NCBI GenBank assembly: GCA_023248155.1
Contig: JAHFFE010000001.1
Span: 314,603 to 378,602, forward strand
Origin: Candidatus Omnitrophota bacterium
GTDB lineage: Bacteria > Omnitrophota > Gorgyraeia > 1-14-0-20-64-10
Direction: 5' to 3'
Length of the DNA stretch: 64,000 nt
In this document: one piece after another, positions 22,638-45,274 of the stretch
How positions within the stretch are numbered: position 1 is the stretch's first letter
Layout: every line of letters begins with the position of its first letter
Program-made: the position numbers and the translations under genes
The notes under the pieces: model-generated
The model's input: the letters and a program-made list of their open reading frames with translations, nothing else
The model's database searches: none
Told to the model about the DNA's origin: nothing

Positions 22638-22721
22638 GTCATCCTGAGATAACAACGGCATGTCATCCTGAGAGTGTACTTGCTCAGGATCTAAAGATGC
22701 TGAACAGAAAATTTTCAGCAT
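22638..22721 (+). repeat. Double-hairpin element copy 2. A half-site GTCATCCTGAGAT (22638-22650) precedes hairpin 1 ATCCTGAG-N10-CTCAGGAT (22665-22690) and hairpin 2 ATGCTGAA-N9-TTCAGCAT (22697-22721).
   Basis: Hairpin 1 is 27/30 identical to 4367-4396. The 3' arm of hairpin 2 contains the ATG (22720) of giant gene 1. Confidence 0.55.
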
Positions 22722-25700: not shown

Positions 25701-26025
25701 CGGCGATATTGCGGAAGTTTCTGATCAGTGGTTGAATGGGGCAGGTTCTGAGTCCGATCTGGTTATTTTGAATAACCAGCTGGATGGCGTGGCCGCTATG
25801 CCAGGTTCCTGGCTTCCGGCGGTAGCTCCAAGGCCAGCCGCGGTCCGCATGAGCCCGGTAACCTCGACGGAGCTTTTTTCAGGCGACGCCATTCAGGTGG
25901 GCCGCAACTTGCGCGCTATGGCGGCGCTCTCTCTGGCAGTGCACGGAGTACCGGATATGGATATAAACGGAATTACCTTTGTTGATCTGGCCGGAAAAAC
26001 CTATGCGGTTATTACCTCTGCCTAA
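22720..26025 (+). CDS. Giant secreted protein, AG-x-EE motif family member 1 (1101 aa)
   Basis: Signal peptide. Six AG(A/Q)EE-type motifs. A GDILVD...ADLRLR module shared with member 2. A conserved C-terminal module ending DLAGKTYAVITSA. Confidence 0.8.
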   Translation: MTKNKSMRIKKYNQVSIATFLLISLVGTSSVPAVSLPIYTLRPLASAQNKSGAEELTNALKRQNDSNANQPLTNQAVLDKAQAGPLLSETKELADAAARAALGITAGQEEKIEQFTRDRILLRLNTGREIPTVPYKTGFLAGLAQAIADPGLSGTAESYLVQELPPGLRDVVQTTADLIGRNRFTKMDMKVAQTDTGSPLTGIAGETIMEILYNAFSRGFGVGLPLSDKGYTAIVVSGTPGSDLSVVSIPEIGPDFQDSQFARSLANHVVDQQPTVLGVDRRAKYTLYEIGTGNTDYALPKYLAGEQGRRGSYLLLQIDLPISFAGAEERGWFSRNKGFFGMVALSVAVLGFAAYQIAGDQIAEQYYLYRHPPTVKQAAVMPSGLHVQLPPEMAGKYAVAYLETDRFYPQVITQVSADGTAAFHVEVRPPNRPGWIAARGRVVAVVNSKQAANVAFREIKDPSALNRLNPAAVLTIDSDGKVTSDKDPLGNQNAGQEESVATAIDQLVSNSFGATNVITTEMLFNNSNGMVTFQNSSYYGDQTYELTLRPWVSLLSDHPEENVDFRVRVSLQRKDFAVLSAAERKAMASYEFRVKGFPSAEFQSGWTALSPNPQPKNYYDPGAGPNTPPGFVIPAGADMETWIPIPIVSDAFRGEKLAELQRRDPAQRSITIQVRKAGQEETVVVGRILTLQAAMEKLRTLLAGSNHKQIVFNPEQNESLIERTETASVKDVSDLTGPVRLIGQYSPNFDNGQGEGLVDIRTRNGIIYVNPFPYKAEELSLKVTQLFRRGDILVDQTTGVRHFEVADNQGNAVDAVPLVSIINGYTADSKVTRVPAADLRLRYRVIRAVAAGAEENVEELAARLGDEPIKVVETLPSSALLTADAKADVVRYLRGEIEEAELLGILDRLGIVEIQSGGNFMNQAELIRAAAKERALVERAIAEDRLGEFIPIADGKSAAVVEVDVVSSLPKVYLQNGLSSPVAAPDDIAIIPLSGDIAEVSDQWLNGAGSESDLVILNNQLDGVAAMPGSWLPAVAPRPAAVRMSPVTSTELFSGDAIQVGRNLRAMAALSLAVHGVPDMDINGITFVDLAGKTYAVITSA

Positions 26026-26065
26026 AATCAATCGTTAGTAGTAGAAAACTTCGCCGTTATTTTTA

Positions 26066-26096
26066 TTGACAAAAATAACAACCCCAGCGCTATAAT
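26066..26096 (+). promoter_or_regulatory. Sigma-70 promoter for giant gene 2
   Basis: TTGACA-19 nt-TATAAT. Followed about 25 nt later by CAGCGGTCTTTTTTT, which resembles a block downstream of the member 3 promoter. Confidence 0.55.
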
Positions 26097-26215
26097 GGCA
26101 AATAACCTTGAATTTCGCAGCGGTCTTTTTTTGTCCGTCATTTTTTACAGATTTAGATAAGATCTGAGACAGCTTTTATGAACCCATATAAAAACTCGGC
26201 CAGATAAAGGAAAAA

Positions 26216-29200
26216 GTGATGCGGACAAATTTAAACCAGTTCCTGGCCGCCCTGCTTCTCGTTGGTCTCTCTTTCGCGAATATTTCTCCCGTCCCTCAGC
26301 TGTTCATGGTGAGTTTATCGAACCATACTCTGCGTGCCGTTGGTTTAGAGGAAGGCACCCAAAAGAATTCTTTATCTGACGCTTTAAAAAATAATGCCTC
26401 CGGATTAGAGGAAGCGGTTGTTTTGGACGCGTCGGTTCCTTATCAATATCCCTGGCGGACTGCCGAATTCGACGAGCTTTGGCCAAATGCCGATGATCGT
26501 GATCCCAAGCTGGAACGCTTTCAAAGATTGTTCAACCAGGATTTGGACGGCCATCCGGAAGGGGAGATTCAGCTCACATCGCCCAACGGAAACCCCGATG
26601 AGTTGGCCCGCTGGATTGCTGAAAACAATATGACTCCGCAGCGGGTTGCCGAAAGCATTGAATGGATCCATAAGATGCACCCCTACGATAAGGAACGGTT
26701 TATCTCTCTTCAGCAGTTGCCCAGCATTCAGGCGTTTCTTGCCGCTCATCCGGAAGCCCGTTTCAATTTAATCGGCGTCCGCGAAGATGAGAGCAAGGTC
26801 GGTTCCTTCAAAATCGGCCAGTATATGGATGAATATCTGCAGAAGATCCTCAAAGCCGGCCATCGAGGAGATGTAAATTTCCCGGGCGCCGTGATGTACT
26901 CCTCGGGAAACGCCATTCAGGGAGATGTCGAGACATTGGCCTGGCTCAAAGAGCAGGGGTTGGTTCCGCAAGATTTCAAGATCACAATGGTGGCAATGGC
27001 TTACCTGAAACCCAAAAAGCGGAAAATGATCGAGGATTTTAAAAAGCGGGGATTGGTTGACCGAATTGTTACCCCCGAAGAAATTGCCGCCGAGTATCTT
27101 GCCGATTCAGAGGGGGGCAGCGTACCGGTTCAGCATCAGGACTTGGCGGTTGATCCCGTGGCGTTGGATGACATCAATCAGGTTTTGAAACTTTTGGATT
27201 GGTGGTCGGAGAAACAGGGCCGGGCCCATATTTACGCTTCCAACAGCTTAAGCGCCGTCGTGGGCGGGGCCAGAATCTACTACGATATTAATCGGGCATT
27301 TACGCAGGATCGTGAATACCTGCAAGCGTTGTTGGGGGATGCCGCCGAAACTTTGCCGGCTCAGCCCGATGGTATTGTCATGCCTGCCGCGGGCGGCGGA
27401 CCGTTCGGGGGAATACCGTTTTGGGCGCGCCAGCTTGGGCATGCCACCAAAACCATCGGACCGATCCCCACCATCCGGACCGGCAGCATCGCGGAAGGTC
27501 TGGGCATTCAGATGATTCAGGAACTCGCGCGCAATCTGGCCCGTTTATTGGGAGTAAATCAGATGCAGCTTACCGAGGTATCTGAGCGGGCTATTCTAAA
27601 AGCGTTTGTGGAACTGCATGACGCCGGAATTGAAGTGGAGCCCAGCTCTGCCATCGCCTACGCGCAGGTGCTGTACCTGATGGAAAACAAACCTGAATTT
27701 TTCTCTCAATTTTTGGCTGAGAACGGCCGGCCGATGACGCTGGTGGCCATATTAACCGGGCGCAATTTTGAACCATCGGATGCCGCCTGGGCTTGGGCGA
27801 AGGTTCAAGAGCTTCGCCTGAAGGAGCCCCATGCCCTCAGAGCCGATCCAACCCAAAGGCAGGCGGCCGTTCCTCCGGCGAATGGGCTGCAGCAGGTTGT
27901 CGTTTTGAGTTCAGGCACCGAGCAGGCAATGGGCAGAGCGCTGCGCCAGGCGGTAATCGATTGGCGCGCGTCCCAGCCGGCAAATCTGAAACCAACCGTA
28001 ACGGCTGTCTACAATCCTCCCAAAGATCTGGATTGGCTTAAAAAGATAAAACCGGATGTCATTCTTGTGGCGGCTACTGCCGAAGAAGCCCAGCAGGATG
28101 GTTTACTAAGGAATGCCATCACAGTTCTTGGCGATGCCGGCGTTCTCATTCGTTATGTTCCTTTCCCCAGCAAGGTAGCAAGATCTTTGAATCCGCTGGC
28201 AAAATCTCTGCCAGGGAAGCTTCTAAAAATCGGCGAGCTGTTTCAGGGAGGGGATATTTTGGTGGATTCGACAACCTCCAAGCCCCGTTTTCGGGTAGTT
28301 GCCGACCAAGCAAACACCATCAGCGCTGTTTCTCTCCAACCAATTGATGAGCAGGGCAATTCCGCGGGGCCGGAAACCGCTGTCCCCGTCGCGGATCTAC
28401 GCCTGCGTTTTCAAGTGGTTCGCGCCGGCTTAGAGGAGCAATTGCTCACCGTTACGGTTCCTCCAAGCCAGCCGGTTTGGCTCACGGCGGCAGATGGAAT
28501 CCAATTGCTGGAACGGTTGCTGCAAGAAGGGGAGTCCCGCTCGATTTACTCTGTTAAGCACGGGGCTGATTTTCTTGTGCCTCGTTACAGAGCGGTAGTT
28601 TCAAAAGAGGGAGGTGTCATTAAAGTCCGAACAGTCGGTAAATTTTCGATGTCACTTGAGTTCGTCATGACGCGCGTCGAGGGTTATTTTATCGTGAAGC
28701 CGGATGGAAACATCTTCGTTATTGATGCCGAAGATGGAAACCAGAGAGCGAATATTTATTTGCGCAAGAATTTTTCGACTATTTCCGTTGATTCTCTCGC
28801 GCCTGCCGCTGTCGAGGGCTGGGTTCAGCGACCTTCCGCGGAAGAAGCGGCGGCCTATATCCGGGAGCTTGTTCCACAAGGCGTTTCTGCTGTTCAAATG
28901 GGAGACGCTGAACATTCTCCGGAATCTGACCGTTTGGTTGATGATCTCACTCAGTTTCAGGGGGGAGCTGGCAGCGGCCGGATTTTCTATTTGAGAAGGT
29001 CCAACCAAAATGTAGAGGTGTTGGCGATCACTGCGATGGATTTTGACGCCAGATCCATTGGGGAGTTCCATCAATTGCCGATGGGTGAGTTGTTGAAGAA
29101 GATCGCTCAGCTGGGAGCGAACTGGTTCGTCCAGGTCGGTTTTTCGAATTCGGCAGCGCGGGTATATGCGACAGACACCTCTGGTTTGCAGAGACTTTTG

Positions 29201-31267
29201 CGTGGATATCCCAATACGACGGGTTTCTACGCCCTGTCCCTTCGCGCAAATCAGACTGCTTTCGTGAGCAACAGCTCGAATCCCAATTCTTCCGGATTGG
29301 AGGAAGATTTTCGAGATGCTTTCTCGGATGGGATGGCCGCTCAGCATTATTTGGACCAATTGGCGGGTTTTGCCGATATTGTTTTATTGAATCAAACCCA
29401 AGAGGCTTTGGGTAGAGTCGACGCCCATTCAAGGGATTATCTGGATCCGAAGGGAATTTATCCTTCCACCAGAGAAATTATTCCCAAGTACGCTCAAGCC
29501 AATCCTGTCGAATTAGACAGTGCTCATCGCGAACGGTTGAAAGAATTTCTTTTTTCGGTTTGGGAGAACGAGCGCCGTATGCGGAACGAACCGCAAGGTT
29601 CTGCTCGAACAGGCAGGCCAGTGGTTGATGTGGAGTCAGCCATGCTTCCTGAACTCATAGAGCAGGGACGTGCTGCTCAGCGGCTGGCGTTGTCTGGCGG
29701 GCTGGAAGAGCGGGTGAATCTTTTGGTTATTCGGGATTCTAATGACGCGGCAACCAAACAAGCGCTGCTAGGTATCGTTCCTGGCTGGGCTAAAACAAAA
29801 GCTTCGCAGGAAATCGATGTGGTTTCTTACGGCACCCTGGATAAGGGGCTTGCCGCCTCGCCTAAGAAAGGCCGATGGAGCGGGATCCTGATGTTGCGGC
29901 ATGTTGCGACTGAAGCCGATGTCGATGAGATTGAGCGCCAGATTACCGGCCTTAAGCCCGTTTCGGATTCTGCGGCGATACCGGTTGCGCTGATCGTCTA
30001 CGCGTCGGACCAAAAAGTATACGAAAAACGGTTGCTGGGTTCGCTGCAACTCCTCAAAGGAAGCCAGGGTATCGTCACATTTTTTGTTCATCGTTTATGG
30101 CAAGACAAACCTGCTTCTCAGCCCGCCGTCGCGGATTCACCGGAACCCACAGCGAAACCGGCAGTGCCGCCGGCAGGAGTCTTCACGGGAGTTCTGGATC
30201 AATTGCTGGACTCCGCGGCTAAGTACGCTGTGGCTGTCGGTCTGGAAGAGCGGGGAGCGCTGCTTCCCGATGTTTTCTTTCGGCGTCCAGGGTTCCAGTT
30301 CCTTATGGAAATGGGAAGAGCAAAAATCCTGCCGGCGGATTTCGATGTCCGGGATAAATCTCTTCAGGTTCGAATCGGCCGGATCGTAGGCCGCTGGGGG
30401 TTCAGCCGTTGGCTGGAAGAACTCCCGCTGGCAAAGGTTCTTGAGAATAGCCCCAATGGGCACAATGACCTGGCCGCGGTGGAAGCGTTTATTGCAAGGG
30501 CACAAAATATTCCGCCGGATTATTTTGGGATAGCGGCAGGAACCACCCAGTGGTCGCCCAAGAAGACGCCTTCTTGGCCGGCGGTTCAGCCATTAGTGAT
30601 CGAGGCGGTAGCGGGTGCTCGTCAAAATAAAAATTTCGAATTACAGTACACCCCTGCTGCGGTAAGCGAATCGGATGTGACTGATCAAAGCGACGGTAAA
30701 ACCTACCATCATGTTGAAATAGTTTCGCCTCCGAAAATTCAGCTTCTTCCTGCCGCCGGGCTGGAGGAATGGACCGTTTCCGATCTGTTCTTGCGCGAAG
30801 TGGTTACCACGCACAATTTTTACACGCGATTTGCGCAAGAAGACGGTTCCCAGCTGATTGTGGTGCCGATGGGACAGAATAAAGTTAAGCCGGCGAATCT
30901 TTATTTGCAGGAGGGGCTTGAGAATCCCATTTCGCGCCTGGTTCCAAACCCTGTTCGTCTGGGAAGAGAAAAGGAGGACGTTCGGGGGCTCTTCCGCCAA
31001 AACCCCGCGGGTCCCAACGATGTCATTGTTCTCAACTCCGATATAGTGAGGGGTGATCCGTTGTCCTGGTTTTCAGCGGGCGGCGCGAATACTCAATATA
31101 AGGTGCGTATTTCACCGGCGTTAGCCATGAAATTCAACAATGATCTGGATACCCGATTCATGGAAGTGGTCGCGTTGGCCGCGCGGGTGGGTAATGGAAT
31201 GTTATTGCTGGACTACACGTATCAGGCGGTGGATGACCAGGTGTACTTGATCCTGCGCTCCGCGTAA
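26216..31267 (+). CDS. Giant secreted protein, AG-x-EE motif family member 2 (1683 aa). The N-terminal domain resembles a fold-type-II PLP enzyme.
   Basis: Seven GLEE motifs. A GSFKIG lysine motif, an AAGGGPFGG glycine loop and GIEVEPSSAIAYA recall threonine synthase/TrpB-family enzymes. The C-terminus ends YLILRSA. Confidence 0.8.
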   Translation: MMRTNLNQFLAALLLVGLSFANISPVPQLFMVSLSNHTLRAVGLEEGTQKNSLSDALKNNASGLEEAVVLDASVPYQYPWRTAEFDELWPNADDRDPKLERFQRLFNQDLDGHPEGEIQLTSPNGNPDELARWIAENNMTPQRVAESIEWIHKMHPYDKERFISLQQLPSIQAFLAAHPEARFNLIGVREDESKVGSFKIGQYMDEYLQKILKAGHRGDVNFPGAVMYSSGNAIQGDVETLAWLKEQGLVPQDFKITMVAMAYLKPKKRKMIEDFKKRGLVDRIVTPEEIAAEYLADSEGGSVPVQHQDLAVDPVALDDINQVLKLLDWWSEKQGRAHIYASNSLSAVVGGARIYYDINRAFTQDREYLQALLGDAAETLPAQPDGIVMPAAGGGPFGGIPFWARQLGHATKTIGPIPTIRTGSIAEGLGIQMIQELARNLARLLGVNQMQLTEVSERAILKAFVELHDAGIEVEPSSAIAYAQVLYLMENKPEFFSQFLAENGRPMTLVAILTGRNFEPSDAAWAWAKVQELRLKEPHALRADPTQRQAAVPPANGLQQVVVLSSGTEQAMGRALRQAVIDWRASQPANLKPTVTAVYNPPKDLDWLKKIKPDVILVAATAEEAQQDGLLRNAITVLGDAGVLIRYVPFPSKVARSLNPLAKSLPGKLLKIGELFQGGDILVDSTTSKPRFRVVADQANTISAVSLQPIDEQGNSAGPETAVPVADLRLRFQVVRAGLEEQLLTVTVPPSQPVWLTAADGIQLLERLLQEGESRSIYSVKHGADFLVPRYRAVVSKEGGVIKVRTVGKFSMSLEFVMTRVEGYFIVKPDGNIFVIDAEDGNQRANIYLRKNFSTISVDSLAPAAVEGWVQRPSAEEAAAYIRELVPQGVSAVQMGDAEHSPESDRLVDDLTQFQGGAGSGRIFYLRRSNQNVEVLAITAMDFDARSIGEFHQLPMGELLKKIAQLGANWFVQVGFSNSAARVYATDTSGLQRLLRGYPNTTGFYALSLRANQTAFVSNSSNPNSSGLEEDFRDAFSDGMAAQHYLDQLAGFADIVLLNQTQEALGRVDAHSRDYLDPKGIYPSTREIIPKYAQANPVELDSAHRERLKEFLFSVWENERRMRNEPQGSARTGRPVVDVESAMLPELIEQGRAAQRLALSGGLEERVNLLVIRDSNDAATKQALLGIVPGWAKTKASQEIDVVSYGTLDKGLAASPKKGRWSGILMLRHVATEADVDEIERQITGLKPVSDSAAIPVALIVYASDQKVYEKRLLGSLQLLKGSQGIVTFFVHRLWQDKPASQPAVADSPEPTAKPAVPPAGVFTGVLDQLLDSAAKYAVAVGLEERGALLPDVFFRRPGFQFLMEMGRAKILPADFDVRDKSLQVRIGRIVGRWGFSRWLEELPLAKVLENSPNGHNDLAAVEAFIARAQNIPPDYFGIAAGTTQWSPKKTPSWPAVQPLVIEAVAGARQNKNFELQYTPAAVSESDVTDQSDGKTYHHVEIVSPPKIQLLPAAGLEEWTVSDLFLREVVTTHNFYTRFAQEDGSQLIVVPMGQNKVKPANLYLQEGLENPISRLVPNPVRLGREKEDVRGLFRQNPAGPNDVIVLNSDIVRGDPLSWFSAGGANTQYKVRISPALAMKFNNDLDTRFMEVVALAARVGNGMLLLDYTYQAVDDQVYLILRSA

Positions 31268-31313
31268 AGGCCCATTGAAAATGTTAGTCGTAGAAAGTTT
31301 CATGATTTAAATG

Positions 31314-31343
31314 TTGACATTTTTGCACTTTCTCAGGTATAAT
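31314..31343 (+). promoter_or_regulatory. Sigma-70 promoter for giant genes 3-5
   Basis: TTGACA-18 nt-TATAAT. A weak hairpin plus GGCTCTTTTTT lies about 35 nt downstream. Confidence 0.6.
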
Positions 31344-31453
31344 TTTCACAATACGCTGGTTTTGTCTTCCAAGCCAGCGGCTCTTTTTTACCCTGCATTT
31401 TTACTTATTTTGGATAACTTAAACAAAGCAAACATTCGGGAGGAATACAAGTA

Positions 31454-34400
31454 ATGCGATTTGATTTCCTGCGCTCAATCTCGGTGGTAGTCCTGTCTGT
31501 TTTTTCTCTGTCGTCTGTTTCTCCTGCATTTGCTCTGCGTGCCGCCGGCTTAGAGGAAAACGCGGAAAAGGGTACGGTCACCAGGAGGCTTCTTGAGGGC
31601 AACCGCGGAAATTTTTCGGGCGGTCTGCAGAAAAACTCCACCTCCGGTCTGGAAGAGATCCGGATCCTGCTGGTGGCGGTTTCTGACGAAGCTCTCGCTA
31701 AAAAAATGGGAGAGATGGCACAGGCCTGGCGTTCGGAGTTGGACGTAAGAATTGTTCACACTGCAGACGAGGCTCAGGTTTATCTGAAAGCGCAGCAAAA
31801 TCCAAGGCCGGATGCGGTCATCTGGGAATTATCCACAATGGGAACCGAGACGCTCATAGATCCAAGCCAGCTTTCTTTCAATGTACCCGTGGCTCTGGTA
31901 GGCGAGGGGGCGATGGGCGTGGTTGGAGAATGGATCGCATTGTTCAACAACCGTCCCGTTCCTGCCCCTTTTCAGGAGACTCTTCAACAAAAAGCCAAGA
32001 AGGATGGGTTTTCGAGAACTGCTCGCTTGTTATTTGGTGATGATCTAGTAAACAGGCGGCCCCTGCGGCTCCTGAGGGGAACTGAAAATTATGAGTTATC
32101 TGCTTTCACGCATAATCTGGACATACTGAATAGGGATTTCAGGAGCCGTTCCGCTGGGCTGGAGGAGGCGTGGGATCGCGACACCGCGGACAGTTGGACG
32201 ATTTTAAGTGGTACAGTTTCCACCCAACTTATCCAGCAGTTGCTTCAACAAACTCCCGCGCCGGCAATCACCGATCTGGGCAATTTTTACTGGACCAAGG
32301 GAACGCTTTCACAATTGACTCCCGGCATGGTGAATAACATTTTGAATGTTGCACCGTCGCGTCACCTATTGGCAATCTCGAATGGACAGGTTGCCTTGAT
32401 TCGTCAGGGAGAATTGGAATCGGCCGACCAGGACGGTGCGAAAGATGCAACCAATTGGTATGGGAAATTGGCGACACGCGCCGAGACAGTGCTGACTCCT
32501 CAGCATTTACAATCCGCCGGCTTGGAGGAAACGCCCGCGCAAGTCATCGCCAAGCAAAAAGCGATGGCAGTCATTGCAGTTCCCAGTGTTCAAGTTGCTG
32601 CCGGTATCGGTGCAGTGGTTGCGTACAAGGGAATAATTCCCGAAATTACATTTCGGGGGAATGAAGCCGATGTTTTGCAGGCGATCAATGCACTTTTCGG
32701 TCTGTCGTCGAGCAAGCGAATGCCGGTAGCGGCCGGATCTGTATTGACGGCCGATCAGGTGGAGAAAGCTGTACGGGCGGGTGCTAAGATTATCGTCAGC
32801 CCCGGCTTGATTGATGAAGTTATTCTCAAGGCCCAGGAATTGGGAGTTTTGGTAATCCCAGGCGTGGCATCGATGTCTGAGGCAAAAACAGCGGTCGAGG
32901 TTTACGGCCTTTCACTGTTGAAATTTTTCCCATTCTCTTTTGTCGATCAGGCTGATTTTATCAAATCAATCAAAGCGCCATTGCCGCCAAATCTTCAGGC
33001 CGTGGTGGACGCTAAGGTAACATGGGGAGATTCCGGAGAAGTCGCCACATTTACAAAAATTCTTGAATTTGTCCTGAGTAATCCGACAGCATCAAAGCAA
33101 TTCCAGCTTCCCAAGAAAAAAGGATTGGAAGCGCTTCATCAATTGGGCGTGAATCCGGCAGTTGCCAATGCGCAGTTTATTCCAACCGGTGGTATTACGC
33201 CGGAGATGATCCCGCAGTTGATAGGGAAGGAAAAGATCGTCGCGGTAGGTTTATCCATCGGCGGAGATAATCCGGCGGTTCTTGCGAAAGCCGATGCTAT
33301 TGCGAAAGCGGTTGCGCAGATTGCTGGTGCCGAGGAGGGAGTGGTTGCCGTTGTTGCATCGGAAGATAATTTTCAGGCAGTCGCTGGTTATGTGCGTAAG
33401 TATGCGATTGGGCAGGGCAGAAAAGCCCCTCAAATGGTTCACCAGCATTTTGATGATGCTCGGCAGAATGCCAGTCGCGGTTTTGTGACTGCCATCGTGG
33501 CGATTTTTCCAAGCGCGGATGCTGATCAAATTGCGTGGATCGAAAGAACCAAAGAACTTGCTCCTAACGTTCCAATCGCCGTGATTTATTCCGGCAATGG
33601 AAACGAGGTTCGCCGCGTCTCAACTAAAGCACTGAGCAGTAGAGAGTTGAGCCAAGATGCGGTTGGTGAAATGGTTTTCTCCCTGCTTCCCACCGCTGGT
33701 GCGGAAGAATCAACCGTGCTTCTTCCAACCCCGCAAAACTCGTTTCCTGCAAGTCGAGGAGCTGTCTCTCCGGACGGGGATTCACTATTAGCGTTGAAAG
33801 AGACACCGGAGGTTCGCTGGGCAACGATGGTGGGCCGTACGGAAGGGTTTTCTTCGGGGCGATCTTCCGACGGTTTGGTTCACGCGCAGGGATTGGTGGA
33901 TCGTCTGGAGATCAAAGCCGGATTTACAACTGGCATTGAAAATGAACTGAATATTGTCGAATCGTATCGAGCTGGGCAATATACGCTGGCGATTCTCGGA
34001 GCACCCGTTGCTACAAGCGCTAGGCCGATTATCCAAGGTTTTAAGTATGAGGTTACAGGTGCTCCTGGGGTTAATCGCGTACTGACACTTTCCGTTGATC
34101 AAAACGCTGTTTCCCCTAAGGTAATAAATAATCTTGTCGCTCAAAATTTACCATCAGGCAGCCCAAAACCGTTGACGGTTGTTATCGAAGCCGCCGCTGG
34201 TCTCGAAGAGACGGTTTACACGGGCATTGACCAGGTTGTAGCGGCGATTACTCAACCTGAAGGCGAAGACAGCATCCGGGCTCTTGTCTACTCTCTTCCG
34301 GATGGAACAGAACAACGCGCGGTTCTTGCCCCAGGTGAATGGACTCCTGCGCAGGCGGTTCCCGGTGCTTTTCAAGCAATGGAACTCCGTCCTGTTTCCG

Positions 34401-37225
34401 GCAGGGTAACAATTACTATTAGTGGAAGCGATGTTGTTCTCCGCAAAGCGCCTGAGGAGCCAGTAATTGTTGCTCCGGTTAAGACTGCTGTGAAACTTCC
34501 GTTGACGGCGCGGCTGGCCAATATGTTTGGCGTATTCCGTTTCTCGGTGGACGCCACGGACAACATCAGCAATGAATTTGTTGATTATGTCGGTTCTGTG
34601 GGTGGTGATAAAGGGACGCTGAACCCATCCTCTGTCGGGAAATCCGCGGAGACCGGGCAGATGAATTCGTTGGTTCGTGAATTTGTTTCTTCTACGGTAA
34701 GAGGCGCGAATCTGCTCTGGCAATTGGTCAAGCGGCATGTCAGCGCGGTTTTCCTTCCCCGCGTGGAGACCAGTGTTGAATTGGATCCAACCGTTCCCTC
34801 GGTTTACGCGTTGACATTGGATGGTAAAAATCCTGTGGTTGTCAAAAAGAGCGAGGAAATCGTTGTTGACGAGATCGCTGTTGTTGTTGACAAGATCGTT
34901 GTTAAGGAAGAGTTCCAGGCCATTGTCGGCAAGAAGACCTTGAAGCCGGGCGAAAAACTGACGCCCGCGCAGGCGCGTCAGGTCCATAGCTTAATGGTTC
35001 GGCAATGGGTGGCGCAGGCGCTCGAAATCCATCGGCTGGGTGACAAAGCGACGGTAAAAATCGGCCACACGAAGTCGTTGACGCCCATCATGGGCGATTG
35101 GGGCGTGCGCGTTGGGCTGGATGTGCTGCATATTTTGTCGGTGCTGGGCATTCACCGCAACTTCACGCTGGGTTTTACCGAAGAAGATGCCAATCTGGCA
35201 TTGCAGGCCGACCGCGTCGTGCAGGCGGAGCTGGACGCGGTGAAAACATTGGATCTTCAGACAGTTTCTGCGGACCAGGTCATTTCCGCGCTGGACGCGC
35301 TCTATACGCCGGAGATTCGAGGGGATTTCAAGAATGACCCTTTGCCGCTGGGTCTCTTAGACAAAACTTCTCCGGTCATTCTTCCGGGCCAGCGCGCGGC
35401 CAAGGGCTACCGTCCGGCCGGGCGTTCTTATTTCAGTTTGTTCGCAAGCCGGGTCGATGCCAAGGTGAACAGCGCTGAATGGAAGGGAGAGTTTACCGAC
35501 GATCAGCAGAAATATTTTGGCATCGTGAACTTGCTGTATGTCATGGTGACGCATTACAACGATCAGGTTCCCTGGAATAAAGCCCATGGTCAGGTCGTGA
35601 TTCCGGCCAGTTTGGAGCCGAAAGTGGCCGGTCAGCCGGGTGATTTCTACTTTACTCCGCTGGTGGGTTGGGGGTATCAGGTTGTGCCGACCGCCTCTAA
35701 AAAAGTGATCGACGCGTTTAATGCTCGGACAGTGACCGATGAAATTACCGGTCAAGAGCGAGAGCTCAGTGAGGCGGAGCTATATGAAATCGCAATGCGG
35801 ACCCAGAGAATGAAGCAGGACTACGCGGATAAATTGGCCGCGCAAGGGCCGTTGTCTCCGGTCATTGATCAGGCCGCGGCGATCGATGTAATTGCCAAGC
35901 GTTTCGTGCAGGAAGGGTTTTACGCTGATTTTGACACGGCCCGCGCTGTGGTTGAGAGCATCGTTACGTACAGGCAGAATAATCCGCAGGGCTACGACAA
36001 AATGATGAACCAGTTGTATCCCGAGGGGGATGATAAATTTACCGGCCCGCATCTGCTCGGTGTTCAGAGCGTGAACCAGAAAATTGAGGTGGTGGCTGCC
36101 AACCGGCAGAGCGCGCAATTGGTTGGTACGCTTCGGGAAATCAACTATGTTCCCACGAGAATCCTCAATGAAACAGGCAGCCAAACGGTGCTTGATAACT
36201 TAACGGATGTCGCTAATTTGTTGGAAAGCGACGATTCCGCTGTTGTAGCGTTGAGTCTGGCTGAAAATTTGTTGATTGTTCGTACCGGCAAAGTGGAAAG
36301 CATCGCTCTTGCGCAGGCCGATCTGTCGGCTTTGTTGTCTCTTGCGGGACCATTGGCTCCGCTGAAAGTTGCTGCACAACAAAGAGCGGAAGCAGAAGCC
36401 AAAACCGCTCTGCAGAACGCGTTTGGAACTTTACCGTTGGATACCGCCGGCACGCGTGTTTATTCCGGCCCGGCCGCTCTGCGCCAGTTGTCGGAACTGT
36501 TTTCCGGAGATGTGGCGGTGATTGGGGCCAGATACGAAGAAGGGAACCCGGCGTCGGTTATTACTACCCCGCGGAACACGGCCCGTCTTTCTGTGAGCGC
36601 TAATCCGAACAACTATCTGGTGATTCAAGCTCCTTCCGGCCAGTTAGCGCTTGTGCGCAAAGAGGAATTGGAATCCAAGGATAGGAGAGCTACAGCTGAG
36701 GCGGCTGCTAGAGCTAAAACCGCTGTTCCGGGTACCGGTGGCGAGGTTATCGCCCCGGTTGCGCCGACATTGCTGGAGCGGATCGTTGCCAAAGTGGGTG
36801 TTCCGATCACTGCAACGGTTGTCAAACTCGATGAAAAGCAACTGGATCTTCCGTCCAGGCTATGGCTGCACAATGGTTTGTTGCAGCCGAGCTTCATTGC
36901 TAGGGAACAGATTACCGATCTCCCGGCTGACAAAGCGGGTGTTGTGGCTGTCTGGTCTGGCAAGCAGGCCCAGATTCAATCCACCGACCTGGTTCTACTC
37001 AACGCCAACACGGTTCCTTCGGCGGAAGTAGATCAGTGGCTGGTAGGATTGCCCGCGGATCGCAAACCGGTTGTTTTACGGCTTTCAAACAATGACATTA
37101 ATATCGCCAGGAATCAGAATATTTTGGCTGCGTTAATCGAGATTGCCCGGCAACAGGGCGGGTATCTGGATGTCATCGGTATGACCTACGATCCGGCTAC
37201 GCAGGTGTTGTCGGTCCAGGCTTAA
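31454..37225 (+). CDS. Giant secreted protein, AG-x-EE motif family member 3 (1923 aa). It has receiver-like, KDPG-aldolase-like and transaldolase-like domains.
   Basis: Signal peptide plus an ALRAAGLEE box. Seven motifs, all in the N-terminal ~900 aa. Eda-like motifs (PVAAGSVLTADQVEKAVRAGAKIIVSPG...IPGVASMSEAK...LLKFFPFS...FIPTGGITPEM) and transaldolase-like motifs (VKIGHTKSL...GIHRNFTLGFT...SYFSLFASRVD). Confidence 0.8.
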   Translation: MRFDFLRSISVVVLSVFSLSSVSPAFALRAAGLEENAEKGTVTRRLLEGNRGNFSGGLQKNSTSGLEEIRILLVAVSDEALAKKMGEMAQAWRSELDVRIVHTADEAQVYLKAQQNPRPDAVIWELSTMGTETLIDPSQLSFNVPVALVGEGAMGVVGEWIALFNNRPVPAPFQETLQQKAKKDGFSRTARLLFGDDLVNRRPLRLLRGTENYELSAFTHNLDILNRDFRSRSAGLEEAWDRDTADSWTILSGTVSTQLIQQLLQQTPAPAITDLGNFYWTKGTLSQLTPGMVNNILNVAPSRHLLAISNGQVALIRQGELESADQDGAKDATNWYGKLATRAETVLTPQHLQSAGLEETPAQVIAKQKAMAVIAVPSVQVAAGIGAVVAYKGIIPEITFRGNEADVLQAINALFGLSSSKRMPVAAGSVLTADQVEKAVRAGAKIIVSPGLIDEVILKAQELGVLVIPGVASMSEAKTAVEVYGLSLLKFFPFSFVDQADFIKSIKAPLPPNLQAVVDAKVTWGDSGEVATFTKILEFVLSNPTASKQFQLPKKKGLEALHQLGVNPAVANAQFIPTGGITPEMIPQLIGKEKIVAVGLSIGGDNPAVLAKADAIAKAVAQIAGAEEGVVAVVASEDNFQAVAGYVRKYAIGQGRKAPQMVHQHFDDARQNASRGFVTAIVAIFPSADADQIAWIERTKELAPNVPIAVIYSGNGNEVRRVSTKALSSRELSQDAVGEMVFSLLPTAGAEESTVLLPTPQNSFPASRGAVSPDGDSLLALKETPEVRWATMVGRTEGFSSGRSSDGLVHAQGLVDRLEIKAGFTTGIENELNIVESYRAGQYTLAILGAPVATSARPIIQGFKYEVTGAPGVNRVLTLSVDQNAVSPKVINNLVAQNLPSGSPKPLTVVIEAAAGLEETVYTGIDQVVAAITQPEGEDSIRALVYSLPDGTEQRAVLAPGEWTPAQAVPGAFQAMELRPVSGRVTITISGSDVVLRKAPEEPVIVAPVKTAVKLPLTARLANMFGVFRFSVDATDNISNEFVDYVGSVGGDKGTLNPSSVGKSAETGQMNSLVREFVSSTVRGANLLWQLVKRHVSAVFLPRVETSVELDPTVPSVYALTLDGKNPVVVKKSEEIVVDEIAVVVDKIVVKEEFQAIVGKKTLKPGEKLTPAQARQVHSLMVRQWVAQALEIHRLGDKATVKIGHTKSLTPIMGDWGVRVGLDVLHILSVLGIHRNFTLGFTEEDANLALQADRVVQAELDAVKTLDLQTVSADQVISALDALYTPEIRGDFKNDPLPLGLLDKTSPVILPGQRAAKGYRPAGRSYFSLFASRVDAKVNSAEWKGEFTDDQQKYFGIVNLLYVMVTHYNDQVPWNKAHGQVVIPASLEPKVAGQPGDFYFTPLVGWGYQVVPTASKKVIDAFNARTVTDEITGQERELSEAELYEIAMRTQRMKQDYADKLAAQGPLSPVIDQAAAIDVIAKRFVQEGFYADFDTARAVVESIVTYRQNNPQGYDKMMNQLYPEGDDKFTGPHLLGVQSVNQKIEVVAANRQSAQLVGTLREINYVPTRILNETGSQTVLDNLTDVANLLESDDSAVVALSLAENLLIVRTGKVESIALAQADLSALLSLAGPLAPLKVAAQQRAEAEAKTALQNAFGTLPLDTAGTRVYSGPAALRQLSELFSGDVAVIGARYEEGNPASVITTPRNTARLSVSANPNNYLVIQAPSGQLALVRKEELESKDRRATAEAAARAKTAVPGTGGEVIAPVAPTLLERIVAKVGVPITATVVKLDEKQLDLPSRLWLHNGLLQPSFIAREQITDLPADKAGVVAVWSGKQAQIQSTDLVLLNANTVPSAEVDQWLVGLPADRKPVVLRLSNNDINIARNQNILAALIEIARQQGGYLDVIGMTYDPATQVLSVQA

Positions 37226-37241
37226 CAGAACGGAGAGAAAA

Positions 37242-40200
37242 ATGCGGTTTAATTATCTGCGAACAATTTCGGCAATCGTTCTGACTGCTTTTTCTCTGTC
37301 AGCGGCTACGCCTATGCCTGCGTGGGCTTTGCGCGCCACTGGCGCCGAGGAAAGCGCCACCCAGCCTATTTTGGCTCGCGCGCTTCAATCCGGCAATAAA
37401 GGTAATTTTGTCCGCGGAGTTGATTCCCGCTTAGTTGCCGCTGGTCAGGAAGAGAATGTTCATGTGCTGGGTATTGAGGGCAAGCCGACCAATTCCCGCG
37501 AGGGTCTGACCGCTTATGACAACCAGCCCGATTTGCAAACGGCGGTCCGTGCTTACGTGCAGGCCTCGTCCGTTCTGGTGACGATTACGTCCATTCAGCA
37601 GAGAGATGGAACAACGGATGAGTTTCTTGGAAAACCGTTTGTTTTTGAAACCTATCGTTTTGCGCCAGGAAAAGATCCTCTCGACCCTAAAGATGGCAAT
37701 TGGGGCGGCATGACCTGGCAACTGCGCCGTTTTTCTATTCGATTAAACGGACTTAGTCGGGTGGGCAGCCCTCTTCCGAATATGTCACACACGCTGAATC
37801 GGTTTCGCTTAATTGAAACATCGCCGGGACAACTTGTCATCGAACCAGTTTTTGACGCGGCGCTTGCGCCGCGATTGAAGACCCTTTTGCCCGATGTGGC
37901 TTTAGAGACGATTCAGGGTTGGTTATCAAAGGGCCAATACGCGCAGATCCTTTCTTTAGCTGAGAGTGGTGCTAACGAGAGAACAGATACTCGGAATCTG
38001 ACGCAAATCCGGAATATGCTCAATGCCATGCTGGATGTTTCTTCCGCCGCTGGGGCCGAAGAGAGATTTGAGGTTTCTGTCCGCAGTACGAGTGATGGCA
38101 CTGAAAACTTCGATCGAATCGAGCTTATGTCCAGGAGCGAAGAAACAGATCGGTTAGCGAATGCACTGGGCTTGATTAAAGGGCGTTCCTTGCTTTTGAT
38201 ACGCCAAAAGGCGCCGACTACCGCCACGGAGGCATTTCCCTTTTTTGCCGTGTCCGATGGGGCAAAGGTGATTCTTTTGTCCGGGGCTGGATCCGATGGC
38301 GCGCAGCTTTGGCGTTCCTATGCGGAAGAAAAAATAAAACGAAGCATAGTTTTTTCATCTATGCGGTCATTTCGTACTTTAGAAAGCCCCGTTAATGTTC
38401 AAATTAGTTCTCCCCTGAGTATTCCTCAATATGATCTATTGCAGGTAACGATCTCTGCTGGGCAGGAAGAAAAGTGGTCGAATCCGTTTATGGGTCCAAA
38501 CCGCGTCAATTTAATGTCTGGCGATTACGCGGCAAAATGGATTTCGCAAGGCGTCTTGGCTGCGAAAATTGCTTCTGTCGCGGTTCATCCGAAAGAGGGT
38601 TCTCCCGTTACGCTTTCGCTGAATCAAGTCAACACAGCTCGAAAATTGCTTCGCCAATTTAAACGCGACGATTGGGTTAATGTGTCCTGGGCAGAAAACG
38701 GTTCCGCTCGGGGAGAAATTCGTGTTGATGTCCGGCCCGTTGATGTTTTGTCCGATGGGATGCCTGTTCCGCCCGTTGGCGAATTTACCAGCGTAATCGG
38801 TTATCTGACCATTACGACGACCCCTTACACCGCGGCCAGGGCCATAGCAGCATCCGCGGCAGAGATTGCTTCCGTTGAAACTCTAATTTCTTTTACGAGT
38901 GACCCCGGCTATTGGAGCGGTTATGGCCACGCAAGCACCGATTGGAACGCCGTGGCTGAACAGCATGCCAAGGTCTATGTGGCTGCCGGCCTGGCTTCAA
39001 TAAATCCGGCTATTTTATCGGCCAAAGTTCAGTTTCTGGCGAATCTCGAACCGCTATTTCTCGCTGGGCAGGAGGAAACTTATTTCTATTCTCCTGCTGG
39101 GGCTACGCTCAAGTCCAACGATCAGACGCAGCCCGATCTTCCTATCGCTGTTGGGGATGTCTTCCGAATTTATCTGGCTCAGAAGCGAGTCAAACCCGAT
39201 GATCGCAGCGACGAGACTTATCTGCTTCGGCTCATGGAGAACGGGCAGCTTGCTCTAATGGAACGGCCGCCAGCCGGCAGAACATTCAGTGAAATGACCG
39301 AAAACGAAGACCAATTTGTTCAGTTGGCCATCGGCTGGGATCAGGCACATCAGCGGGGTGAGCGGGTGACCATAAATACCCTGTATGGACCCGTGAGCAT
39401 TTCACTGAACGCGGGAAAAACCCAACTTGCCTTCGAGCATGCTTTCCGAGAGGAAAATATAGAGGAACGCATTGGCTCTAAAGTAAATATTTATCCTAGC
39501 TCTCTCTACGACCTCGGCTTCAATCGCCTTATTCCAGCTGTTGGGTTGCCCGCCGTCAGGGATTTTAAAGCCGCTTATCGCCGTTTCTATAAGAATCAGC
39601 AAAACGGAGACGCCGCCGCGCGGTTAGAAGCGGCCCGCGTAGCTTTAGTGGTGCTGGCCAATACGGAAGATCAGACACGGTTTCGTGCGGCCTATGCCTC
39701 TTTTGAAAAGGCTCTTTTGAATGAGCTGCAAACGGCTCCTTACACTCTTGTCAAGGGCGTTCCGGGTTTCGATAAACCGATTTTTGCAATAGATTATGTG
39801 AGTCACACCCAGCGTCAGCTCGTCGATGAACTCACCGCGATTCGATCCCTTTCAAATGCCGCCGGGGCGGAGGAAACTTACCGCAACTACGATTCCAGCG
39901 GTTGGCATGTCACATTACCCGCAGGGCAAGCCGTCGCGCAGCCGGTTACGGTGGCTACTAATCCGGGAGATATTCTGCTTCTGCAGTGGGCGCCCCAAAT
40001 TCCGAATCAGGAAAATAGGCTGTTCGCGCTGGTTCGGGTTTCTGATGATGGAAAAGAAATTTCCGTCTTGGATCAGCTCGATTCGCAATTCAGATTGAGT
40101 AGTTTTTATCGGGCGGGTGTTCAGGGTATGACTGGAGCAGAAGTGCCTGGCGATGTTATCCGGAGCGTGGAGTGGGGACCGGCCGCTTCGGAGGCGAGAA

Positions 40201-42056: not shown

Positions 42057-42060
42057 AACT

Positions 42061-45177: not shown

Positions 45178-45274
45178 TCATCCTCGCAGTGGTTAATCAA
45201 AATATAGTCTTTGATATTCTGTATTGATTTTTAATAAGCTCATTGGGTATAGTTCGTATATAGACACAAAAACA

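Follow-up and report, generated by a model that had tools for sequence, protein, structure and literature searches.

A pentapeptide motif delimits whole-enzyme cassettes in a rare protein family that is encoded at a conserved, hypervariable locus. The window (the whole stretch of 64,000 nucleotides of a Candidatus Omnitrophota bacterium that was analysed) has an island of six tandem paralogous genes, m1 to m6. Member 3 (m3) has two modules related to class I aldolases, which are a complete KDPG/KHG aldolase (Eda) and a divergent transaldolase-like (TAL-like) module. The delimiting role of the motif was absent from the original prediction, which had described the domains of m3. Our assessment is evenly balanced on whether m3 is a string of active, exported central-carbon enzymes, a mosaic of cassettes that are bracketed by the motif and probably cleaved.

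The island and the member 3 gene

The GC content of the island is 0.49-0.55 versus 0.55-0.59 in its flanks, which consist of housekeeping genes. The island is located between a H+-pyrophosphatase gene and the OmpA/UppS genes, and the conserved neighbours include the envelope genes PG_binding and OmpA. An island occupies the same site in about 16 metagenome loci, whereas the flanks of more distant relatives are the same but enclose no island. Loci L096 and L105-L110 are among those without it. The small gene that borders the insertion site upstream (Table 1) is present in 23 metagenome loci, whether or not an island follows. Since it is also found at sites without the island, it was rejected as a dedicated partner. 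The island was also considered as a mobile element, but there is no tRNA, there are no flanking direct repeats beyond the motif-coding sequences, and no integrase was found among the ORFs scanned with Pfam. No Rfam family matched the hairpin in the m2-m3 spacer or any structured RNA in the island.

The m3 gene encodes 1923 amino acids in one frame and begins with a signal peptide layout, as the original prediction had stated. A protein identical to m3 is recorded in an NCBI assembly, on a contig of 381,716 bp. On sequence reading, the N-terminus is MRFDFLR-SISVVVLSVFSLSSVS-PAFA, with LR following the predicted cleavage point, and has the n/h/c layout of Sec signals. The n-region is basic and the h-region is short (~15 residues). 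The A-x-A site is conserved and is followed by L-R/K. The hydropathy scan shows only one other hydrophobic window, at aa 371-389 within the aldolase barrel, and no second TM segment. A signal-like N-terminus is present in 6/6 island genes, and sequence reading finds the layout kept across the m3 paralogues and more than 20 relatives, in every family member. These sequence features suggest that m3 is exported.

Table 1. Features of the island and of m3, with positions given in the window
Feature	Position	Strand	Basis or remark
Conserved small gene at upstream edge of insertion site	21896..22459	+	not island-specific
Island, six tandem paralogous mosaic genes, ~25 kb	22720..47677	+	ORF list, GC, signals, motifs
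m1	22720-26025	+	island paralogue
m2	26216-31267	+	island paralogue
Promoter-like site before m3, TTGACA-18-TATAAT, 12/12	31314..31343	+	consensus scan; consensus match only
Hairpin + T-run, m2-m3 spacer	31354..31389	+	m2 terminator or m3 leader element (alternatives)
m3 ORF	31454-37225	+	1923-aa mosaic protein; ORF list and translation
m3 Sec-type signal peptide, aa 1-27, predicted cleavage between AFA and LR	31454..31534	+	sequence reading and hydropathy scan
Motif copy 1, AGLEE, aa 31-35	31544..31558	+	directly behind signal peptide
Motif copy 2, SGLEE, aa 64-68	31643..31657	+	motif scan
Module aa 66-235, alternating strand/helix pattern (predicted as receiver-like)	31649..32158	+	P0002 paralogue
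Motif copy 3, AGLEE, aa 234-238	32153..32167	+	motif scan
Motif copy 4, AGLEE, aa 355-359	32516..32530	+	N-terminal boundary of Eda module
Complete KDPG/KHG-aldolase (Eda) module, aa 360-623	32531..33322	+	Pfam, TIGR01182, PDB matches, residue mapping
Motif copy 5, AGAEE, aa 624-628	33323..33337	+	C-terminal boundary of Eda module
Motif copy 6, AGAEE, aa 748-752	33695..33709	+	motif scan
Motif copy 7, AGLEE, aa 915-919	34196..34210	+	last in m3
Divergent transaldolase/FSA-like module, aa 1019-1556	34508..36121	+	PF00923 and colinear signature blocks
Family C-terminal domain, aa 1764-1923	36743..37222	+	consensus ..LYLQxGL..DLIVLN..WLP..YAVIRSA
m4	37242-42056	+	island paralogue
m5	42061-45177	+	island paralogue
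m6	45224-47677	+	island paralogue

Modules of member 3

The original prediction had assigned an Eda domain to m3, and this assignment stands. The Pfam profile PF01081 matches the module with an E-value of 1.5e-21 and 77.2 bits versus a cut-off of 27.8, in two separate stretches (aa 364-510 and the part that includes PTGG). TIGR01182 gives an E-value of 1.8e-26 and a score of 92.8 bits, which is under the NCBIfam subfamily cut-off of 156. KDPG aldolases in the PDB also match the module (best E 4.7e-17), and its EITFR and LKFFP blocks match PDB entries 4e38 and 2yw3 as well. The Eda blocks GxGS/T, SPG, IPG, KFFP and PTGG are all found. In the alignment the module retains Glu397, Arg401, Ser429, Lys490, Phe492, Thr578-Gly-Gly and Ser601. 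The first five align with E45, R49, T73, K133 and F135 of E. coli Eda, and T578-G-G and S601 with T161-G163 and S184. The Schiff-base lysine, whose conservation had been singled out for checking, is Lys490 (codon at nt 32921-32923) and is kept along with the whole catalytic set. The phosphate-binding loops with PTGG and S601 also align, and the set is complete. The retained residues suggest that m3 carries a catalytically competent KDPG/KHG aldolase. The related protein P0003 likewise keeps all catalytic and phosphate-binding residues of Eda, and the Eda module of the distant relative P0004 is without the equivalents of the Schiff-base Lys and Arg49. Compared to the free class I enzyme, the m3 module has full-length homology and the Glu/Arg/Lys set, but it sits inside a 1923-aa protein that is probably exported, misses the subfamily cut-off, and has a ~60-aa insertion between the Lys strand and PTGG, which is common to P0003.

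The second aldolase claim, a transaldolase-like domain, is confirmed at the profile level. PF00923 (cut-off 27 bits) scores 31.8 bits on the whole of m3, 35.1 on the module alone, and 38.4 when two insertions of ~50-60 aa each are removed, with the alignment limited to profile positions ~90-266. The orthologous modules of P0002 and P0017 score 31.5 and 22.2 bits, respectively. Both class I aldolase assignments therefore survive, as each predicted family is recovered by profile searches with a score over its curated cut-off. Six TAL signature blocks, mostly matched by eye, are colinear in m3 with plausible spacing: FSVD1033ATD, TLN1057PS, SVE1109LDP, VK1202IGHT, N1236FT1238L and S1328LFASR1333VD. 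These are presumably the counterparts of D17, N35, E96, K132, N154/T156 and S176/R181, which would make Lys1202 (nt 35057-35059) the putative Schiff-base residue. The catalytic Lys, Asp and Glu thus have putative colinear counterparts, but an HMM made independently from 34 transaldolases aligned only the last, Ser..Arg block (SxFSLFxSRxD), the others being placed by eye.

A comparison of the TAL-like module by hhalign with the canonical TAL module of P0023 recovered only SxFSLFxSRxD, with a probability of 1.6%, and an AlphaFold2 model based on three aligned sequences has a pLDDT of 46.6, which is too poor for a fold search. No transaldolase in the PDB was matched by phmmer or hmmsearch with the module, a 3-sequence profile or an insertion-trimmed version, and no NCBIfam model matched the module. 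The assignment comes from one Pfam profile and motif inspection, and a TIM-barrel fold is putative. The module is 77-92% identical to its counterparts in P0002 and P0017, and its dN/dS is 0.073 versus 0.2-0.3 in the adjoining segments. It is like the transaldolase/FSA family in its profile score above the gathering threshold and in the putative counterparts of the Asp, Asn, Glu, Lys, Asn-x-Thr and Ser..Arg blocks, but unlike it in being very divergent, in its two insertions, and in having no NCBIfam or PDB sequence match. The module may be a divergent but constrained aldolase of the transaldolase family. Since the catalytic sets appear intact and the dN/dS is as low as 0.07, an enzyme reading of the modules is favored over a pseudoenzyme or binding role, which the original prediction had also considered.

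The receiver-like domain that had been predicted near the N-terminus (aa 66-235) is not confirmed. The W-E pair at the phospho-acceptor spot is present (W124-E125), with Glu at the acceptor position itself, but the identity of the module as a receiver has no profile support. Response_reg (PF00072) has no match in m3 at E<=1 or in aa 66-235 at E<=10, and there is no receiver among the PDB structures that match aa 66-235. P0002 has a paralogous module (37.5% identity, E 4e-10) with L-D at the same spot. Compared to response-regulator receivers, both this module and the family C-terminal domain are without a profile match, and the acidic pocket is not conserved. The C-terminal domain has an α/β, CheY-like fold and ends most of the six island paralogues. 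Its dN/dS is 0.12 versus 0.2-0.3 in adjoining segments. The readings of the domain as a protease or as a β-sandwich or β-barrel secretion domain were rejected, given its α/β fold and the lack of an invariant catalytic residue.

The pentapeptide and the exchange of cassettes

The motif [AS]-G-[LAQ]-E-E occurs 31 times in the island versus 0.11 expected in shuffles (maximum 2). Together the six paralogues have 37 G-x-E-E motifs, and the form across the relatives is [AS]-G-[L/A/V/Q/M]-E-E. The copies are spaced 100-350 aa apart with domain-sized modules between them, and one copy is always directly behind the signal peptide. In some relatives the motif is also found inside the C-terminal domain, at the start of a helix. 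The middle residue depends on the locus; loci L084 and L085 have mostly GLEE, L086 and L095 have mostly GAEE or GVEE, and others are mixed. Variant repeats also occur in relatives, with ARLA[EG] in P0004 and AGLEG in P0016 and P0033. The claim that the motif disappears from the C-terminal ~1000 aa of m3 proved correct, as no copy is present past residue 916. In P0017 an AGLEE directly precedes the orthologous TAL module, and m3 has none there. Some other junctions show a similar decay of the motif with no loss of the ORF, such as AWGQGR in P0002 at the position of AAGLEE in m3.

Synonymous codons vary among the motif copies; therefore, selection seems to act on the motif peptide. A role purely at the DNA level, as a repeat or a recombination signal, was rejected because of this variation at synonymous positions, though imperfect micro-homology of 20-23 nt is present. 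An internal Shine-Dalgarno sequence with restart of translation was also rejected; GAGG is found in about half of the copies, and no consistent in-frame start codon follows. A full-text literature search for Omnitrophota and polyprotein gave no paper, and a search for 'AGLEE' gave noise only.

The family is rare, with 32 relatives among 1.84 billion representative proteins, and no relatives of m3 were found in species-representative genomes. Its members are 529-3907 aa in length and belong to a groundwater lineage that is probably Omnitrophota. In the single marker PurA, the best matches are Omnitrophota MAGs at 60-63% identity, and a MAG labelled Planctomycetia reaches 62%. Assemblies from NCBI, Logan, ENA and JGI each show the same architecture independently. 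Enzymes in the relatives include transketolase, malate synthase, formate-THF ligase (FTHFS), SHMT, FBPases (GlpX, FBPase_3) and sugar kinases (PfkB, ROK), and further domains are 2-Hacid_dh, HAD and PALP. Proteins of the same family also contain WD40 propellers and many modules without a Pfam match. The FTHFS of P0018 is located between motifs at residues 862 and 1406 and scores 565 bits, and an SHMT cassette reaches 317 bits, with profile positions 3-399 of 399 covered. Some cassettes in the relatives begin with their own twin-arginine (Tat) signal. Several of the enzymes found as cassettes depend on ATP, CoA, THF, NAD or sugar phosphates. None of these is expected outside of the cytoplasm, which weighs against the exported-enzyme reading.

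The locus of a sister strain (L002) shows the exchange of cassettes. It has malate synthase in place of Eda, and the modules s4-s5-s6 of m2 are permuted to s5-s6-s4, with the breakpoints at the motif. The swapped and permuted cassettes of sister strains represent a natural experiment, and the motif may show where puzzling long proteins are cut or recombined.

Interpretation and known systems

In the proposed explanation, m3 would be a Sec-exported 'beads-on-a-string' protein in which the beads are whole proteins captured as cassettes that work independently of their order. The cassettes would supply central-carbon, serine and C1 enzyme activities beyond the cytoplasmic membrane; the place could be the periplasm, the cell surface or the contact zone with a host cell, and the substrates may be phosphorylated metabolites of the host. 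Most probably the pentapeptide would serve in processing, as the recognition site of a protease that frees the cassettes. Its coding sequence could also provide in-frame micro-homology for cassette swapping. A more specific version, which is rather doubtful, is that the motif is the cut signal of a dedicated system by which an episymbiotic or predatory bacterium turns Sec-exported polyproteins into free, active central-carbon and C1 enzymes outside its cytoplasm. In this version the island would encode a metabolic toolkit that is exported, varies among strains and acts on the contents of host cells, and the enigmatic Omnitrophota long proteins would have their first defined cut-site code. If the motif is a processing site, it would support the idea of host-dependent bacteria deploying metabolism outside their own cytoplasm, and would be directly useful in proteomics, in peptide cleavage assays and in the computational segmentation of giant proteins.

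It is possible, if on the whole unlikely, that the protein is uncleaved and the pentapeptide is a favored inter-domain hinge and in-frame recombination joint, resulting in a multi-enzyme string tethered at the envelope. The swap and permutation breakpoints at the motif agree with this, as does the motif-coding DNA, which forms the only repeat families of the island (20-23 nt, 74-91% identity). The loss of the motif at junctions where the ORF stays intact points the same way, and Pfam and NCBIfam found no protease in the island or in any module. However, hinges are normally compositionally biased, whereas the motif is a fixed pentapeptide with an invariant Gly and Glu-Glu, and the free synonymous variation weakens DNA homology as the selected feature. 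A copy directly behind the signal peptide is at a place where no domain junction exists, and the locus-specific middle residue suggests co-evolution with some factor that reads the peptide. Even as a recombination joint only, the motif would still be an unusual route to mosaic proteins from whole genes. The enzyme-derived modules could also be non-catalytic, being kept for their folds as oligomerising, ligand-binding or adhesive parts from which a surface layer or a scaffold for host contact is built. This is made unlikely by the complete catalytic and phosphate-binding residues in the Eda modules of m3 and P0003, by the six putative TAL signature blocks kept at a dN/dS of 0.07, and by the FTHFS and SHMT scores, which are like those of ordinary enzymes. 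Points in favor of a scaffold are that ATP, CoA and THF are missing outside of the cytoplasm, that WD40 propellers and modules without a Pfam match are found in the same proteins, and that the P0004 Eda has lost Lys133 and Arg49. Many of the parent enzyme families are also oligomeric.

A cytoplasmic location for the bulk of the protein is improbable. The N-terminal segment would then be an uncleaved anchor or mis-read, and the proteins would form membrane-tethered cytoplasmic metabolons, for which the cofactors would be no obstacle. A 2023 preprint cautions that an extracellular placement of such domains may reflect overlooked topology (10.1101/2023.11.21.568195), and a second preprint describes 46% of long Omnitrophota proteins as TM-only with a cytoplasmic bulk (10.64898/2026.06.07.730766). 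Yet the basic n-region, the ~15-residue h-region and the A-x-A followed by L-R/K are typical of a cleaved Sec signal with the bulk outside, and m3 is without a further TM segment. The cassettes that carry an internal Tat signal stem from exported proteins, and the conserved neighbours PG_binding and OmpA are envelope genes. The data are all metagenomic and the cassettes resemble whole genes, as would be seen if separate genes had been merged into long ORFs by assembly or gene calling in a metagenome-assembled genome. An artefact of this kind is nonetheless extremely improbable given the independent recovery of the architecture in four sets of assemblies, the long uninterrupted frames in six adjacent genes, a dN/dS well below 1 across stretches that contain junctions, and a junction peptide that is conserved, unlike random intergenic sequence.

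Giant proteins of Omnitrophota have been described as having glycolytic and gluconeogenic enzyme domains, a predicted extracellular location and unknown cleavage points (10.1101/2023.11.21.568195), and a later preprint describes 'multi-enzyme metabolic' long proteins with signal peptides (10.64898/2026.06.07.730766). In one of the two preprints the missing knowledge of cleavage points blocked the structural analysis, and both leave open the site of action as well as whether and where cutting occurs (10.1101/2023.11.21.568195; 10.64898/2026.06.07.730766). The best reading of m3 is a medium-length version of these 'multi-enzyme' long proteins of Omnitrophota. Like those proteins and the Archaeovorins, m3 has a signal peptide and tiled, unrelated metabolic-enzyme domains (aldolases, FBPase, ROK kinase and HAD for the group), its location is predicted to be extracytoplasmic, and post-translational cleavage is suspected. 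The reported proteins are 10-147 kaa with a catalogue threshold of 10,000 aa, whereas the m3 family is 0.5-3.9 kaa, has only signal peptides without TM bundles, and has no detected C39/S8 peptidase, dockerin or HEAT. The pentapeptide delimiter, the C-terminal domain and the fixed hypervariable locus of the m3 family are not found in the passages of the two preprints that were consulted. The locus is a tractable small-scale version of the Omnitrophota long-protein puzzle, with proteins of 1-4 kaa, whole-enzyme cassettes that keep their active sites, and a sharply defined pentapeptide at the cassette boundaries.

Two other systems have a comparable layout. MARTX toxins are giant secreted mosaics with short linker sites between the modules; their effector modules vary among strains by recombination, and an internal cysteine protease domain releases the effectors from the polyprotein. 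The m3 family is similar by analogy only, as a probably secreted mosaic with a strain-variable repertoire of modules and short sites between them. However, Pfam and NCBIfam show no RTX repeats or cysteine protease domain in the family, the signal is Sec rather than type I secretion, and the modules are housekeeping-type enzymes rather than toxins. The gingipain-type polyproteins of Porphyromonas (RgpA/Kgp/HagA) have a signal peptide, modules that are processed at defined sites, which are Arg/Lys, and a conserved C-terminal domain, which is the β-sandwich type IX secretion signal of Bacteroidota. The m3 family shares the signal peptide, the multiple modules and a conserved C-terminal domain, but in this family the domain is of the α/β, CheY-like type.

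Enzyme modules of m3

The gene m3, third of six tandem paralogues (m1-m6), is present as an open reading frame of the predicted extent and has an Eda (KDPG/KHG aldolase) module in aa 360-623. The Pfam KDPG/KHG aldolase model matches it with an E-value of 1.5e-21 (77 bits, cut-off 27.8), and NCBIfam eda models match to 1.8e-26, yet under their subfamily cut-offs. The module also matches 45 distinct KDPG aldolase sequences in the PDB (best E 4.7e-17), with EITFR and LKFFP aligned residue for residue. Aligned with E. coli Eda, it retains Glu397, Arg401, Ser429 (for Thr73), the Schiff-base Lys490, Phe492, Thr578-Gly-Gly and Ser601, which is the entire catalytic and phosphate-binding set. The prediction of an Eda-like domain is borne out. 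About 60 residues are inserted between the lysine strand and PTGG, as in the related protein P0003. Since the module starts right behind one copy of the boundary motif and stops right ahead of the next, it corresponds to a complete Eda protein.

A distant relative annotated just as Eda, P0004 (MBI4433018.1, 1350 aa), is without the Schiff-base Lys and Arg49 in its Eda domain. It carries six copies of a different short motif, A-R-L-A-[E/G/S], and its gene adjoins toxin-antitoxin genes.

The evidence for the transaldolase-like (TAL) module is weaker than that for Eda. The Pfam transaldolase/FSA model matches m3 with an E-value of 1.2e-7 (31.8 bits, cut-off 27); aa 1019-1556 alone score 35.1 bits, or 38.4 bits after manual removal of two insertions, and only profile positions ~90-266 are aligned. 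All six signature blocks (FSVD-ATD, TLNPS, SVELDP, VKIGHT, NFTLGF and SLFASRVD) are colinear with reasonable spacing, and are presumably the counterparts of E. coli TalB Asp17, Asn35, Glu96, Lys132, Asn154/Thr156 and Ser176/Arg181. There was no usable match to PDB sequences, nor in a profile-profile comparison with the canonical TAL module of a relative. An HMM from 34 ordinary transaldolases aligned only the SYFSLFASRVD block, and the AlphaFold model, built from three near-identical sequences, was unusable (pLDDT 46.6). The module is 77-92% identical in two relatives and is under strong constraint, with a dN/dS of 0.073 against the sister-strain orthologue and 0.2-0.3 in flanking segments. 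The predicted resemblance holds for the Pfam score and the blocks, while the structural and profile comparisons added nothing to it; the segment is quite likely a TAL-family barrel.

The receiver-like domain predicted in aa 66-235 was not supported; Response_reg gave no match at thresholds up to E<=10, and the solved-structure matches did not include a receiver. The Trp-Glu pair is located where it was placed. At this position the paralogous P0002 module (E 4e-10) carries Leu-Asp, which is suggestive, although it is not a test.

Boundary motif and fixed locus

All six proteins have a signal-like N-terminal segment followed by (A/T)-L-R. They contain 37 copies of G-x-E-E, and 31 of these fit [AS]-G-[LAQ]-E-E, compared with 0.11 expected (maximum 2) in composition-preserving shuffles. 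The Gly and both Glu are invariant, Ala precedes the Gly in 27/37 copies, and there is no other conservation nearby. The spacing of 100-350 residues is domain-sized, and one copy is invariably a few residues from the signal-peptide site. The DNA repeats within the island are motif-coding stretches only. The synonymous codons of the motif vary freely; therefore, selection acts on the peptide.

The island has a GC fraction of ~0.51 versus ~0.57 in the surrounding housekeeping region. The islands always occupy one site, 3' of a conserved small gene that itself follows the H+-pyrophosphatase gene, and 5' of PG-binding, OmpA and UppS genes. No Pfam family matches the small protein (..VYWEGEEEVF..WYYGMLPELGKW..). 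As a marker, its gene identifies 23 metagenome loci (L088-L110) with or without an island downstream; motif-bearing giants follow it in ~16, and in more distant loci it is followed directly by housekeeping genes. In the loci without an island (L096, L105-L110) the marker gene precedes a basic protein of ~280 aa, an enzyme of ~530 aa, then UppS, CdsA, Dxr and RseP. The ~280-aa and ~530-aa genes are not present in the window; the start of the enzyme (..LHGHLPYIRHPE..) resembles glycoside hydrolase family 57.

In a sister strain (locus L002) the genes keep their order and differ in what they contain. Malate synthase takes the place of Eda in the m3 orthologue, m4 has no counterpart, and m2 is represented by two genes. 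The m2 modules s4-s5-s6 are found there as s5-s6-s4, with the joins exactly at G-L-E-E motifs.

Features of the island, its surroundings and related loci (window positions unless another locus is named)
Feature	Position	Strand	Remark
Upstream neighbours			LptC, trigger factor, ClpP, SerA, PurA, H+-pyrophosphatase
Conserved small gene	21896-22459		Between H+-pyrophosphatase gene and island
Island, m1-m6	22720-47677	+	
Hydrophobic segment of m1	23734-23790	+	aa 339-357
m2	26216-31267	+	
Sigma-70 consensus TTGACA-18-TATAAT	within 31314-31389		Perfect match, 110 nt 5' of m3; consensus match only
Hairpin, 9 bp, plus T-run	within 31314-31389		~10 nt or less past the sigma-70 match, 5' of m3 start
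m3	31454-37225	+	1923 codons
Antisense ORF	34154-34987	-	277 aa, entirely within m3
Secretin_N-matching segment of m3	36395-36658	+	aa 1648-1735
m6	45224-47677	+	Second C-terminal ending
Free-standing ROK gene	48107-49273		Downstream of island
Downstream neighbours			ROK, PG-binding protein, OmpA, UppS, CdsA, Dxr, RseP, IspG, NusA
m2 counterpart, L002	3307-9827		Two genes
P0004 gene, L003	42-4094		
Relative, L084	12405-17438		Second C-terminal ending
Relative, L086	13905-23453		Second C-terminal ending

Relatives and a proposed route of export and processing

Word matching against 5.8 billion proteins returned only four, the query among them. With the C-terminal 160 residues common to the family as a profile, 32 proteins were found among 1.84 billion cluster representatives; the listed match is at the extreme C-terminus except in the weak hit P0031. 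PurA, encoded upstream of the island, has its best matches in Candidatus Omnitrophota MAGs (60-63% identity), a single marker that makes an Omnitrophota origin probable. The relatives, on contigs from groundwater metagenomes, have the same signal, A-L-R/K and motif as m1-m6; GAEE/GVEE is favoured at some loci and a few proteins use AGLEG. Their modules include whole enzymes: formate-THF ligase (565 bits), SHMT (317 bits), malate synthase (E 3e-39), a transketolase of three domains that adjoins a transaldolase more canonical than that of m3, FBPases of the GlpX and class V types, 2-hydroxyacid dehydrogenase, PfkB and ROK kinases, a HAD hydrolase and a PLP enzyme. WD40 propellers and many modules unmatched in Pfam are also present. 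Internal segments resembling twin-arginine (Tat) signals (TRRDFLKSVAAGAAALGAAA) are at or near module starts in P0017 (aa 56-90), P0022 (~aa 350) and P0023 (aa 56-90). Since some cassettes start with their own twin-arginine signal, this suggests that whole genes or exported proteins were captured with their signals.

One sub-clade (P0019, P0021, P0026, P0030) has the motif, as G-A-G-L-E-E-V-L, also inside the C-terminal domain, in a loop and the start of helix 64-73 of the model, so that its occurrence is not restricted to inter-module linkers.

Long proteins of Omnitrophota with signal peptides, many metabolic-enzyme domains and suspected cleavage are already on record in passages of two preprints (10.1101/2023.11.21.568195; 10.64898/2026.06.07.730766), so the m3 family is not a new kind of thing. 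No defined boundary motif, dedicated C-terminal domain, fixed hypervariable locus, between-strain cassette permutation, or embedded aldolases keeping active sites under purifying selection was found in those passages. Among modular secreted polyproteins, MARTX toxins and those of the gingipain type offer useful analogies, but all their testable defining features are absent here.

Residues 1-27 of m3 contain two Arg, a ~15-residue hydrophobic core and Pro-Ala-Phe-Ala followed by Leu-Arg, an arrangement that by sequence is typical of a cleaved Sec signal. The hydropathy scan found one other hydrophobic window, within the aldolase barrel. The conserved signal features suggest that the protein would be exported by Sec, and the permutation between strains shows autonomous cassettes whose function would be independent of order. 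With their active-site residues intact and purifying selection on them, the two aldolase cassettes at least are probably catalytically competent; the rival reading is that the modules form a non-catalytic scaffold.

Codon variation shows that the pentapeptide is recognised as a peptide. Its reader would most likely be a protease that processes the protein and releases the cassettes, because the motif sequence is fixed and marks all boundaries, even the one right behind the signal peptide, with a locus-dependent middle residue. Difficulties for this proposal are that Pfam/NCBIfam scans of the island and modules identified no protease and that the motif is decayed at some junctions; alternatively, the string would stay uncleaved and the motif would be a hinge and recombination joint. 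The freed cassettes may act in the periplasm, at the surface or in a host-contact zone, supplied with host-derived sugar phosphates and other metabolites, the site that a passage of the 2023 preprint proposes for glycolytic domains of Omnitrophota giant proteins (10.1101/2023.11.21.568195). A further difficulty is that the cofactors of several cassette enzymes are not expected outside the cytoplasm, and a cytoplasmic-facing topology is the corresponding rival. An assembly artefact is a further, very unlikely alternative.

Transcription signals and minor features

A ribosome-binding site (GGGAGG) precedes m3. The hairpin and T-run with the promoter-like site may be an m2 terminator overlapping the m3 promoter, or a leader attenuator. 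The intergenic gaps m3-m4, m4-m5 and m5-m6 are 16, 4 and 46 nt, and m3 to m6 are probably a single operon. Antisense ORFs comparable to the one within m3 are found across the whole GC-rich window, and it is treated as a chance ORF. The m3 segment that links the TAL module to the C-terminal domain has a weak Secretin_N match below threshold (E 0.0042, 17.7 bits vs 28.2).

In m1, a strongly hydrophobic 19-residue segment (FFGMVALSVAVLGFAAYQI) starts 13 residues past a motif copy and may be a transmembrane helix. Similar segments in m2-m6 are only the N-terminal signals and short windows in the m3 Eda barrel and the m4 C-terminal domain. In m2, aa 377-485 have a partial match to PALP (PLP-dependent enzyme) of 33.6 bits (cut-off 35) and weak threonine-synthase matches; the L002 orthologue scores 34.5 bits for PALP. 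Instead of the ..YAVIRSA domain, some members have another ending specific to the family, ..F(F/V)xxGGLxF(L/V)..L..SA. The orthologue of m6 clearly contains a ROK domain (E 1.6e-11); ROK also occurs as a gene of its own downstream of the island.
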